A DNA stretch of 64,000 nucleotides from Dehalococcoidia bacterium (GTDB taxonomy: Bacteria; Chloroflexota; Dehalococcoidia; Bin125): NCBI GenBank assembly GCA_963662615.2, contig CAXXSR010000001.1, positions 1,536,001-1,600,000 on the forward strand. Direction: 5' to 3'. A program made the position numbers and the translations under genes. Within the stretch, counting starts at the first letter, position 1; every line of letters begins with the position of its first letter. Shown here in pieces: positions 4,604 to 64,000 of this stretch. The notes below the pieces were generated by a model. That model was not told the DNA's origin. It was given only the letters and a program-made list of their open reading frames with translations, and made no database searches.

Positions 4604-4680
4604 GCCCCCGTAGCTCAACTGGATAGAGCAGCGGCGTTCTAATCCGCAGGTTGCAGGTTCGAGTCCTGCCGGGGGCGCCA
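4604..4680 (+). tRNA. tRNA-Arg (anticodon TCT)
   Basis: 77-nt cloverleaf: acceptor GCCCCCG/CGGGGGC, D arm GCTC/GAGC, anticodon TCT, GGTTCGAGTCC T arm, encoded CCA. Confidence 0.95.
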
Positions 4681-22810: not shown

Positions 22811-23704
22811 CTAGGCGCCGCGATGCACCTCCGCACCGCCCAGGGCTTCCAGGACGCGGACCAACGCCTGGGTGCCGCGGTCGCCGCCGCCCGCCGCCTC
22901 AAGATGGTGATAGAGCTGATGGACGAGGGCGGTAACGGCGAGCGGCTGTTGGACGTCCGCGGCCGCGCCCAAGGCGAGGCGAAGGTCCTTCTGCAGCAGC
23001 TTCACCATGAACCCCGGGGCGAAGTCGCGGTCAATGATGCGGGGCCCCAGGTTGGTCATTTGCCAGGAGCCGGCGGCGCCGGCGCTGATCGCCTCCAGCA
23101 TCTTGGCCGGGTCCACGCCAGACTTCTGACTGAGAGTGAGCGCCTCGCAGACACCGGTGAGCGCGCCGGCGATGGCCACCTGGTTGCAGAGCTTGACCGT
23201 CTGCCCCGCGCCCACCGGGCCAACGTGCGTGATCGTCTTGCCGAGGGCCTCGAAGATGGGCCGGCAGCGCTGTACGACGGCCGCATCGCCGCCCACCATG
23301 ATTGAGAGGGTGCCGGCGATGGCGCCCGTATCGCCGCCGGAGACCGGCGCATCCAGCATGGCGACGTTCTTCTCCGCCAGCTTCGCGCTGATGGCGCGCG
23401 TCACGGCGGGGCTGATCGTGCTCATGTCAACGAGGACCGCTTCAGACCGCAGGCCGGCGATCGCGCCGTCGTCGCCCAGCACCACCTGCTCCACGTCCGG
23501 GCTGTCGGTCACCATGCTGATGAAGACGTCGGCGCTCTCGGCGACCGCTCGGGCAGTGGCGGCTTCCTGCGCACCCGCTGCCACGCATTCGTCGATGCCG
23601 GGGCGGCTGCGATTCCAAACCGTCACGGCGAAGCCCGCCTTGAGAAGGTTCTTCACCATGGGGCGCCCCATGATGCCCAGTCCGACAAAGCCGATGTGAT
23701 CCAT
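22811..23704 (-). CDS. Beta-hydroxyacid dehydrogenase (2-hydroxy-3-oxopropionate reductase / 3-hydroxyisobutyrate dehydrogenase family)
   Basis: IGFVGLGIMG, DMSTISP, LDAPVSGG, GQTVKLCNQ. Confidence 0.92.
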   Translation of the reverse strand: MDHIGFVGLGIMGRPMVKNLLKAGFAVTVWNRSRPGIDECVAAGAQEAATARAVAESADVFISMVTDSPDVEQVVLGDDGAIAGLRSEAVLVDMSTISPAVTRAISAKLAEKNVAMLDAPVSGGDTGAIAGTLSIMVGGDAAVVQRCRPIFEALGKTITHVGPVGAGQTVKLCNQVAIAGALTGVCEALTLSQKSGVDPAKMLEAISAGAAGSWQMTNLGPRIIDRDFAPGFMVKLLQKDLRLALGAAADVQQPLAVTALVHQLYHHLEAAGGGDRGTQALVRVLEALGGAEVHRGA

Positions 23705-24189
23705 CTTTTTCTCCCTTGCACTCGCCCGCCCGCGAGGGCGGACTGCCGCGCGCGCGCAACGCCGAGACTATTGCCACGCCGCAGCCCTCTGCGTAGGCGA
23801 GGAGCGCCGCCGGCTGACGACCGGCGTGTTGCCTGGAGGCACGATGGCGACCTTCCCCCTGCTTGGCAAGAGTGCGGAGGCAGGAGGCCGCCGGCGTTTG
23901 CCATATCTGGCATGCTGGGGGCAGGGCTCGCCCCTTGCGGGGGGCCGGCATGGCCCGGCCGATCCGCTGGACGGAGCAGGGACGGCCGCCTGCACCAGCG
24001 GCGCCGTCGCGCGACGATGAACTTGTGGAGACGGCGCGCGCGAGGGACGGTCGCTAGGGAAGGCGGACAGCAGGTCCAGCATTTATGTAATCGCCATGTA
24101 AATTAGGAAACAGAGGGGGCGCGACGAGCTTTTCTGCCATCGCAAACTGGAAAGCGATGCGGTATGCTTACAGCCACAACTGAATAGGG

Positions 24190-24315
24190 TGCTGGGCCTA
24201 ATCCCTCCTGGAGGGAACGGGGGACCCGATATTTGGGGTGAATAGAGCATAACGCTCTTAGGCGCACTCCTTCGCGCCGAACCCGACAGCTAACCCCGTA
24301 GGCGACCGAGGGAGG
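24190..24315 (+). promoter_or_regulatory. c-di-AMP (ydaO/yuaA) riboswitch aptamer
   Basis: Conserved blocks in order: AATCCC..GGGAACGGGGGACCC..TTTGGGGTGAAT..CCGAACCCGACAGCTAACCCCGTAGGC; upstream -10 TATGCT. Confidence 0.9.
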
Positions 24316-24328
24316 TTTGACTGCTCAG

Positions 24329-24360
24329 GAGTCGATCCTGTCTTGAGGATCGGCTCTTTT
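24329..24360 (+). terminator. Intrinsic terminator (riboswitch expression platform)
   Basis: 11-bp stem GAGTCGATCCT/AGGATCGGCTC followed by TTTT. Confidence 0.85.
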
Positions 24361-24376
24361 GTGTAGAGTCACCCAA

Positions 24377-24712
24377 GTCGCCATTCACGGCTCGGTACCG
24401 TAATCATGCAGGGAACCGTTGGCCGCTCGCCCGGTCGACGGACCTGGAATTGGACAGGGTTTTCTCGCTCACCCTGTCCGCCTCCTGACCAGCCCGGGGC
24501 CTTAGGGCCCCGGGCTGTGCTTAACGCGAAAATCCGACTCCCTGCGTGAGGCCACGCTGCCCCGCCGCTGAGGGGGCGCCGCGCCTCACAGGGATCCAAG
24601 GGCACACCGTCCCGCAGGCAAGCGCGACCGCGAGGGCGGCCGGCGTGTCGATGCAGCCCGCGCCGGGGCCGGGCGCTCACTGTCGTTGCAACAGCGGTAT
24701 CGCGGCGGGGAC
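24377..24712 (+). ncRNA. Candidate structured non-coding RNA of unassigned family
   Basis: Nested 9-12 bp helices forming a multiway junction, with G-U pairs favouring the + strand; no credible ORF; boundaries approximate. Confidence 0.55.
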
Positions 24713-24753
24713 CATCAGTGGACGCCGTACCCGGACGCGGACATACTCGTCGC

Positions 24754-25560
24754 ATGGATCGCGATGCACTGAGCCTCTTCTCCGTTCGTGCTGCCACGGA
24801 CGTGCCGGCGGTGAGCGCAGAGCAGATGCGCGAAGTGGACCGGCTGGCTGTTGAGGACGCCAGCCTGGACCTTCTGCAGATGATGGAAAACGCCGGCCGC
24901 GCACTGGCGCTCGTGGCGCGCGACTATCTGTCTTCGGGCGTGACGGGCAAGGGACCGGCGAAACCGTCGTCGATTCTGGTAGTGGCGGGCAAGGGCAATA
25001 ACGGCGGGGGGACGTTGGCCGCCGCGCGGCATCTGCGCAACTGGGGATTCGATCCGCAGGTGGTGTTGAGCGCTCCGCCCACGAGTCTGGGCGAGGCGAC
25101 CGCCCGCCAGCACCACATCCTCCACAAGGACGGGGTGCGACCGCTGTGGCCGGGCGGGCGCCAGTTCGATCAGCGCTTCCCGGAGCAGCTCGAGGCTGCC
25201 ACGGTCGTGGTTGAAGGGCTGGTGGGCTACGGCCTCCACGGCCCCCTGCAAGGCGATCCCGCCCTGCTTGTGGATGCGATCCTGGATCGGGCGGCGCCGA
25301 CGGTGATCTCGCTGGACCTGCCGGCGGGCTTCGACGCGACGTCCGGCGCCGTGTACTCCACCGGCGTCGTGGCAACCACCACACTGACCTTGGCGCTGCC
25401 GAAGACCGGCTTGCTCCAGGGCGACGCCACGGCGGCCGTGGGAGACCTCCTGCTCGCGGATATCGGAATCCCGCACTACATCTACGAGCGGCTCGGCCTC
25501 CAGGTCCCGCCCGACCTCTTCGCGGAGGGGTTGATCGTTCGGCTGCTGCCGGAAGGCTAG
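24754..25560 (+). CDS. nnrE: NAD(P)H-hydrate epimerase (YjeF N-terminal domain)
   Basis: QMREVD, MMENAG, GKGNNGG, SLDLPAG, TLTLALPK, LADIGIP. Confidence 0.88.
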   Translation: MDRDALSLFSVRAATDVPAVSAEQMREVDRLAVEDASLDLLQMMENAGRALALVARDYLSSGVTGKGPAKPSSILVVAGKGNNGGGTLAAARHLRNWGFDPQVVLSAPPTSLGEATARQHHILHKDGVRPLWPGGRQFDQRFPEQLEAATVVVEGLVGYGLHGPLQGDPALLVDAILDRAAPTVISLDLPAGFDATSGAVYSTGVVATTTLTLALPKTGLLQGDATAAVGDLLLADIGIPHYIYERLGLQVPPDLFAEGLIVRLLPEG

Positions 25561-63751: not shown

Positions 63752-64000
63752 CTTGCGGACCGGCCGGCATCATTGAAAGTTCGAATACAAGAGATTCACA
63801 TCGATTACGGCCGAGTGTGTGCAATCCAGAGAGGTAATGAGGGAGATTGGTCTCTGTGCGGCCGTCTAGCCTCATGCTTACGCTTGGGCGACGATCCGTT
63901 GCCGGATTTACTGTGGAATTCATTCCGCGCCTGATACGATCGTGGCACGCAGCCGAGCCTCGTCCCAATGGATGAGGGCGGGGGACCCAATCCTCTGGGG

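Follow-up and report, generated by a model that had tools for sequence, protein, structure and literature searches.

We describe a locus in an uncultured Dehalococcoidia bacterium at which a c-di-AMP riboswitch is followed by a structured RNA module instead of a gene; in this bacterial family, what the second messenger controls thus appears to be a regulatory RNA and not a protein. We consider it reasonably likely that the locus gives rise to one non-coding transcript of about 350 nt that is riboswitch-gated (or ligand-sensing), and that the module is its functional output, acting in trans. All positions given below are those of the window, the whole stretch of 64,000 nt of DNA that was analyzed, on its + strand.

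A c-di-AMP aptamer followed by a putative terminator

Riboswitches for c-di-AMP are known to act in cis on genes for transport, osmolytes, and the cell wall. Analysis with cmscan identified a full-length match to this family (RF00379) at 24185-24319 on the + strand, which covers model positions 1-134 of 134 and reaches 96.8 bits, far over the gathering score of 38, placing the element among the c-di-AMP riboswitches by covariance-model score. A ydaO-type aptamer had been recognized at 24190-24315 in a preliminary description of this DNA, and the match agrees with it. Only two matches in the whole window exceeded the gathering score, this one and a tRNA. The genome of the window encodes a DAC-domain c-di-AMP synthase and contains four RF00379 matches, two of which are followed by the conserved module described below. 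The third, cut at the end of the window (63952), is located upstream of a radical-SAM gene, and the fourth, on another contig, upstream of a 69-codon Cys-rich ORF.

Upstream of the aptamer, a conserved leader, ACAACUGAAUAGG (24176-24188, + strand), probably marks the 5' end of the transcript. Its block CACAACTGAATA is kept across the 23 upstream sequences compared, and the leader CACAACUGAAUA is common to relatives, in which it likewise lies upstream of the aptamer and is preceded by -35/-10-like boxes. The putative promoter of the RNA in the window (24140-24168, + strand) consists of TCGCAA (24140-24145), 17 nt, and TATGCT (24163-24168); relatives have similar boxes equally far ahead of the conserved leader. 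A strict sigma-70 consensus scan of 23700-25000 flagged zero promoters.

Downstream of the aptamer, both reading of the DNA and terminator scans predict a terminator (T1; 24328-24360, + strand; -19.9 kcal/mol), the candidate expression platform. Its stem of 11 pairs, including 2 G-U, is formed by 24328-24338 and 24347-24357, encloses an 8-nt loop (24339-24346), and ends in TTTT (24357-24360), in keeping with the terminator previously placed at 24329-24360. A simple consensus terminator scan of 23700-25000 returned 0 terminators, T1 being among the hairpins left unflagged. A predicted fold of the nascent RNA joins the 5' arm of T1 to 24314-24324, which would be a possible antiterminator according to this purely thermodynamic prediction.

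A conserved, structured module downstream of the terminator

The conserved module extends over 24387-24527 (+ strand) as bounded by R1, a covariance model with 135 positions and 23 pairs that was built after aligning 24 copies (alignment A1). It is composed of two hairpins (P1 and P2), a single strand with GCCUCCUG, and a terminal hairpin (T2). P1 (24409-24446, + strand) is predicted to fold as a bipartite hairpin, with P1a formed by 24409-24412/24443-24446 and P1b by 24416-24425/24432-24441 (10 bp, 2 G-U). In 35/35 distinct homologous segments, this place is taken by one hairpin with 10 bp or more, the stem sequences being widely different. P2 (24452-24479, + strand), identified by fold and covariation, has a stem of 9 bp (24452-24460/24471-24479) and the loop UUUCUCGCUC (24461-24470); the length of this loop varies between 9 and 12 nt among homologs, and its UCGCUC is invariant (alignment columns T72 C73 G74 C75 T76 C77). 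The single strand that follows, GCCUCCUGAC (24480-24489, + strand; GCCUCCUGRCC in the conserved alignment columns), is anti-Shine-Dalgarno-like and, save for a weak 3-bp helix, unpaired in the fold centroid. T2 (24490-24527, + strand), again identified by fold and covariation, forms the 3' end of the conserved RNA with a GC-rich hairpin of 12 bp (24490-24501/24506-24517) and the tail UGUGCUUAAC; its loop has a variable sequence of 4-9 nt. The segment 24398-24527 folds with z = -5.06 (0/200 shuffles as good), and the three hairpins read earlier at 24416-24441, 24452-24479, and 24490-24517 reappear in this fold exactly as they had been drawn. As a side observation, pairing between GAGGGAG in the aptamer tail and CCUCCU is often present in RNAfold predictions (4-7 bp, with wobbles), without clear covariation.

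The module is conserved and its stems covary. In an unfitted MAFFT alignment, 88.1% of the P2 and T2 cells are standard-paired; sliding the partners lowers this share to 31-64%. Both sides have changed in 49 cells of P2 and T2, compared with 17.3 in shuffles (0/500 shuffles attained 49), and RNAalifold detected compensatory changes in 5 of 12 pairs. It should be noted that alignment A2, on which some of the counts are based, was fitted to the model. Regarding the strand, the z-score for 24361-24753 is lower on the minus strand (-3.60) than on the + strand (-2.12); despite this, an excess of G-U over A-C in helix cells (25 vs. 9), together with the T-rich tails found 3' of T2 on the + strand, indicates that the RNA is encoded on the riboswitch strand, as had been argued before from the G-U pairs of the window. 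When 24000-24900 was compared with Rfam 15 (cmscan, E <= 10), all matches other than RF00379 stayed at chance level (no more than 24.7 bits, where the cut-offs are 35-112). The module thus matches no Rfam family, in line with the preliminary description, in which the RNA could not be assigned to 6S, SRP, RNase P, or tmRNA.

The conservation does not continue beyond T2. Similarity to relatives ends near 24531, the GC-rich spacer at 24528-24718 (+ strand) is unconserved and outside the RNA family, and 24530-24753 folds at chance level (z = +0.35; 134/200 shuffles equally good). The conserved non-coding part after T1 therefore measures about 130-160 nt and ends at T2. The ncRNA of about 330 nt proposed in the preliminary description has to be shortened accordingly: a conserved structured RNA does follow T1, but it stops short of 24753. 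The further short stems that had been listed 3' of T2 are rejected as a feature, as the sequence there is unconserved and folds no better than shuffles. An 11-bp helix between 24404-24414 and 24539-24549, described as enclosing the three hairpins, can indeed form in the window (with one G-U), but it is not conserved: no counterpart was found in 47 other distinct loci, where the longest helices had 4-10 bp, like shuffled controls. It is longer than shuffled controls solely in the genome of the window, and we rejected it as a feature.

Judged by comparison of the homologous sequences, the module region contains no conserved ORF. We considered whether it could instead encode a small peptide under translational control by the riboswitch, given that the window has a 47-codon ORF at 24406-24549 and that open frames are common at the local G+C content. 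Against this, the most conserved core (P2 through the single strand) tolerates indels of 1-2 nt and varies between 37 and 42 nt with all three classes modulo 3 represented; no frame with a start codon is open in all sequences, the best one being open in 34/48; the second, paralogous copy in the genome shifts the conserved block to a different frame; and the changes within stems are compensatory. A peptide is thus extremely unlikely, and the initial impression of a structured RNA without a credible ORF downstream of the riboswitch is supported.

The module is strictly coupled to the aptamer

In the genome of the window, a second c-di-AMP aptamer is followed, after about 140 nt, by a copy of 24452-24500 with 90% identity. 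A BLAST comparison with 24 genomes of the same family recovered the aptamer in 24/24 and a second block, at about 24441-24531, in most of them, with nothing beyond it. Searches with R1 detected the module in 64/65 genomes of the family, with scores of 80-115 bits; the single genome without it is 94% complete and also lacks the aptamer. Outside the family, 151 genomes (G000 among them) sampled evenly across the class gave one match of 32 bits (L073), without an aptamer motif upstream, and 151 genomes (again with G000) sampled from the phylum gave just two matches of about 24 bits (L165 and L166); these weak matches were not accepted as modules. In addition, a pattern scan of a species-level genome collection returned 90 stretches, with the R1 assessment made among the 80 listed. 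At least 27 are true modules (27/80 among the matches listed, with R1 scores of 80-115 bits), and all 27 of these belong to records titled Dehalococcoidia, Chloroflexota, or Chloroflexi bacterium (MAGs). The other 53/80 listed matches come from other phyla, have no R1 match, and were discarded as chance matches.

Aptamer and module are strictly coupled. The aptamer core motif is located 88-153 nt upstream of the module in 49/49 module matches, and RF00379 was detected above cut-off in 20/20 homologous loci scanned, with 57-102 bits. Of the family's genomes, 64 contain the pair and 1 lacks both (65/65 concordant). In g6, the largest genus, comparison of coordinates revealed exactly one RF00379 match in 37/37 genomes, on the same strand and just upstream of the module, and a single aptamer per genome is found in 48 of the 64 module-bearing genomes. 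In the 37 species of g6, the gene that follows is convergent. These comparative data reach beyond what was open to the preliminary description.

These data bear on the possibility that the module is a separate sRNA gene with its own promoter, situated beside an orphan or decaying riboswitch. The linker between T1 and the module, 35-150 nt long, would have room for a promoter, and g6 has no terminator between the two parts, so that their arrangement alone is no proof of control. However, the joint presence or absence in 65/65 genomes and the spacing held at 88-153 nt speak against two independent elements, and aptamers that score 57-102 bits are not decaying. Furthermore, a loose -35/-10-like motif was present upstream of the aptamer in 39/47 loci and in 0/47 of the T1-module linkers; as this motif was defined after viewing the upstream sequences, only the negative result for the linkers counts as a fair test. 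Taken with these points, an independent sRNA gene seems highly improbable.

Downstream genes vary and are often convergent

The genes downstream of the module are unrelated and often convergent. A convergent gene for enoyl-CoA hydratase (ECH) comes next in 18/27 named loci (the 27 among the matches listed); it ends 9-204 nt past the module in 16/18 and lies about 470 nt and about 1,740 nt away in the other two. In 9/27, the next gene is nnrE-like (YjeF_N), on the same strand and 68-735 nt away. This is the arrangement of the window, where an nnrE-like gene with a YjeF_N domain (Pfam PF03853, E = 1.3e-33) occupies 24754-25560 (+ strand), outside the RNA. It is preceded by a promoter-like motif (24719-24756, + strand) made up of TGGACG (24719-24724), 17 nt, CATACT (24742-24747), 6 nt, and the ATG at 24754, a placement suited to a leaderless start, and no Shine-Dalgarno sequence is present before the gene. 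An equivalent motif, TGGAYS (once TAGACG), 17 nt, SATACT, 6 nt, and ATG, precedes nnrE in 9/9 loci (the window and 8 relatives), which lends support to the separate, leaderless-type promoter already proposed for this gene. Behind the second copy of the module in the same genome, no ORF on the same strand matches a family, and the first clear gene lies about 845-850 nt further on, on the opposite strand.

It is conceivable that aptamer and module together act in cis as a long 5' leader that tunes nnrE in the clade of the window through read-through at T1 and T2. The same-strand position of nnrE in 9/27 named loci and in the window fits this idea, as does the weak U-tail of T2 in the clade with nnrE. 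Nevertheless, the module is equally conserved (>100 bits) in the 18/27 loci whose next gene is convergent, the distance to nnrE varies over 68-735 nt with an unconserved spacer, and one relative has a convergent SRPBCC gene between module and nnrE. The conserved promoter-like motif 6 nt before the ATG, the missing Shine-Dalgarno sequence, and the second copy of the module without nnrE also argue against a leader, and we consider this explanation improbable.

According to PMC7266159, a riboswitch is located before the ORF under its control. The context found here is different, since the downstream element is non-coding, the next gene is often convergent (18/27), and nnrE has a motif of its own; the RNA is therefore an RF00379 member by score that is not co-oriented upstream of a regulated ORF.

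Terminators differ between clades

The terminators were compared under strict criteria, namely a hairpin followed immediately by a run of at least 3 T. A canonical T1 was present in 15/22 non-g6 sequences, including the window, and in 0/26 g6 sequences, such that a platform of this kind 3' of the aptamer, a predicted hairpin with TTTT in the window, was recognized in part of the family. With regard to T2, a hairpin with a T-rich tail was found in 48/48 sequences under loose criteria. The strict scan identified a canonical T2 hairpin with a U-run in 25/26 g6 sequences and returned a match for 6/22 non-g6 sequences, 2 of these matches being only short sub-hairpins; the window gave no strict match at T2, where its U-tail (UGUGCUUAAC) is weak.

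It is plausible, on the model outlined below, that termination at T1 is ligand-controlled in the clade of the window. The weak tail and the few strict matches at T2 outside g6 suggest that some read-through into the same-strand nnrE is possible, that is, T2 may leak towards this gene. The absence of a canonical T1 from g6 (0/26) indicates that simple termination control is not general and cannot be the whole story. Judging from these scans, aptamer and module are probably always one molecule in g6, and control there, if any, would work in another way.

Transcription and possible partners of the module

A run recorded as a metatranscriptome contained two 151-nt contigs with 95-99% identity to the locus, which cover 24211-24361 and 24373-24507. 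Contigs from RNA libraries of this kind are compatible with transcription of aptamer and module; they carry no information on ends or strand and could be of DNA origin. Library X1 had no contig over 24000-24210 and 24510-25000, a result to be read with the caveat that contigs cannot show absence, and libraries X8 and X9 yielded the conserved aptamer core only, through relatives.

Based on the anatomy described above, the transcript would start near 24176 and would end at T2 near 24520. Its 5' half would contain the c-di-AMP aptamer and T1, and its 3' half P1, P2 with the UCGCUC loop, GCCUCCUG, and T2. In this genome, binding of c-di-AMP would favor T1 and limit the transcript to about 190 nt; when c-di-AMP is low, the polymerase would pass T1, and the resulting long form would display the module. 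A sequence-specific partner in trans is suggested by two features, the invariant loop on its covarying stem and the unpaired CCUCCU tract; these invariant, pyrimidine-rich, unpaired elements most likely make the contact. The partner could be the purine-rich ribosome-binding region of mRNAs, in which case the module would be a base-pairing sRNA, or an RNA-binding protein. We favor base pairing to purine-rich ribosome-binding regions and see sequestration of a protein as the main alternative.

Searches for such a partner in the genome of the window were neutral. Sites complementary to the P2 loop (GAGCGAGA) number 222 and are no more frequent than those of permuted 8-mers, for which the mean was 125 and the range 27-418; neither the 19 loop-complement sites at possible gene starts nor the lists of co-occurrence with Shine-Dalgarno-like sequences contained anything outstanding. 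These target scans are uninformative, as they speak neither for nor against mRNA targets. Within the RNA itself, a 6-nt Watson-Crick complement of the P2 loop was found in 34/49 sequences, in g6 mostly as GAGCGA in the P1 loop. Neither the window nor most of its clade has this intramolecular partner, and some g6 sequences have it in broken form, for which reason it was rejected as a general feature; a loop-loop contact is possible in g6.

The alternative of a protein partner would make the long form a sponge or decoy like EutX/Rli55, in which the P2 loop and CCUCCU bind an RNA-binding protein that is titrated at low c-di-AMP. An invariant UCGCUC over the covarying P2 stem suits a sequence-specific contact with a protein as well as with an RNA, the scans of the genome of the window returned no convincing mRNA target, and there is a precedent in a riboswitch-containing sRNA reported to sequester a response regulator (cited in PMC7266159). 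On the other hand, no candidate protein is linked to the module by gene neighborhood, because the flanking genes vary between clades, and the ANTAR-type site with two hexaloops is absent (the P2 loop has 9-12 nt). We therefore regard the decoy as a secondary possibility, and a rather doubtful one.

The most far-reaching reading, which we put forward only tentatively, is that the whole molecule of about 350-400 nt acts as a trans-acting c-di-AMP riboregulator, constitutes the sole c-di-AMP RNA receptor of most species, and is controlled in g6 by ligand-induced remodelling. In g6, which lacks the terminator, the ligand would expose or hide the UCGCUC loop and the CCUCCU tract, and transcription would not be stopped.

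Relation to known systems and biological meaning

The locus resembles other c-di-AMP riboswitches in that the aptamer of the window is full-length, a hairpin and U-run follow directly, as in 'OFF' switches, and a synthase domain is encoded in the genome. It differs from them in the conserved non-coding module downstream, in the frequently convergent next gene, and in g6 by the lack of a canonical terminator.

EutX and Rli55, from Enterococcus and Listeria, reportedly consist of an AdoCbl aptamer, an early terminator, and a later 3' end, and the ligand is said to decide on the functional 3' part. The site bound by ANTAR proteins is made up of two hairpins with hexaloops. The RNA described here is similar to EutX and Rli55 as an ORF-less RNA with a 5' aptamer, an early T1, and a late T2, a likeness that is known at the level of sequence (T1, T2, and no conserved frame). 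In contrast, its ligand is c-di-AMP and not AdoCbl, it belongs to another phylum, and it has no ANTAR-type pair of hexaloops, with loops of 9-12 nt in P2 and 4-9 nt in T2. The EutX/Rli55 entries in Rfam did not match the locus, for which RF00379 was the only match.

A second comparison is offered by RsaE/RoxS and 6C RNA, sRNAs with pyrimidine-rich seeds that mask ribosome-binding sites. Features in common are a short structured RNA, a GC-rich terminal hairpin, and unpaired C/U-rich segments (UCUCGCUC and GCCUCCUG) with complementarity to purine-rich, Shine-Dalgarno-like sequences. Unlike those sRNAs, the module has no match in Rfam, has yielded no targets in scans, and is fused to a ligand-sensing aptamer.

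To our knowledge, the well-studied precedents for riboswitch-gated sRNAs involve vitamin B12 only. The searchable full-text literature, which does not include subscription journals or supplements, gave no example of a c-di-AMP riboswitch whose output is non-coding and nothing of the kind from Dehalococcoidia. By analogy, the locus would thus represent an ncRNA gated by a riboswitch that is new both in its ligand class and in its RNA motif, with EutX and Rli55 as its nearest functional analogues.

Regarding the biology of this lineage, most of its genomes have their sole c-di-AMP riboswitch fused to a dedicated non-coding module. The module is a new RNA motif with clear covariation from uncultured Dehalococcoidia, and its invariant loop and anti-Shine-Dalgarno-like tract provide experimental handles. 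Moreover, some clades have an internal terminator and others do not, which provides a natural test of termination versus conformational control. If the module is the output, second-messenger signalling would be extended to RNA, and if the riboregulator reading is true, c-di-AMP would govern a post-transcriptional regulon through an RNA effector, with no cis-regulated gene.

Loop complementarity between P1 and P2

In most sequences of g6, the largest genus of the window's family, the loop of the bipartite hairpin P1 carries GAGCGA (loci such as L020, L039, and L044), which is perfectly complementary to UCGCUC, the invariant sequence in the P2 loop. Base complementarity of this kind could allow a loop-loop kissing contact between the two hairpins in g6. 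A few members of the genus have a broken match, with GAACGA instead of GAGCGA in the P1 loop, and the match is absent from the window and most of its clade.

Surroundings of the other c-di-AMP aptamers

The ~850 nt that follow the module's second copy (locus L006, contig C1 of the window's own genome, G000) yielded no convincing gene. Within this stretch (L006 1965-2666), a 36-nt repeat (core TGTCCGACATAGAGTTC) occurs four times, along with several inverted arrangements of it that are 24-40 nt long.

The window's end cuts through a third c-di-AMP aptamer (window 63952-64000, running on past the window; L007 1501-1620; 74.8 bits). Approximately 120 nt beyond it lies a strong ribosome-binding site, GGAGGGAGGAGG, followed by a 459-codon ORF whose radical-SAM match is weak, scoring 29.3 bits where the cut-off is 29.5. 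We take this ORF to resemble a lysine 2,3-aminomutase-type enzyme, a product for which a role in osmolyte synthesis would fit. Besides RF00379, the sole Rfam match in the window is a tRNA gene (4604-4677).

The fourth aptamer, on contig C2 of the same genome (L008 1502-1890), is followed by a 69-codon ORF encoding a Cys-rich, zinc-ribbon-like protein that had no match in Pfam. A similar small ORF follows an aptamer in G030, a genome of another family (L035), and the two share the C-terminal ending ...QRRRQPSHGKLRL. The Cys-rich ORF may encode a conserved c-di-AMP-regulated small protein.

Promoter-like motif before nnrE

The motif TGGAYS-17-SATACT-6-ATG (window 24719-24756) is conserved before nnrE in the window and eight related loci, an arrangement that suggests leaderless mRNAs and provides a usable promoter consensus for the window's uncultured family.
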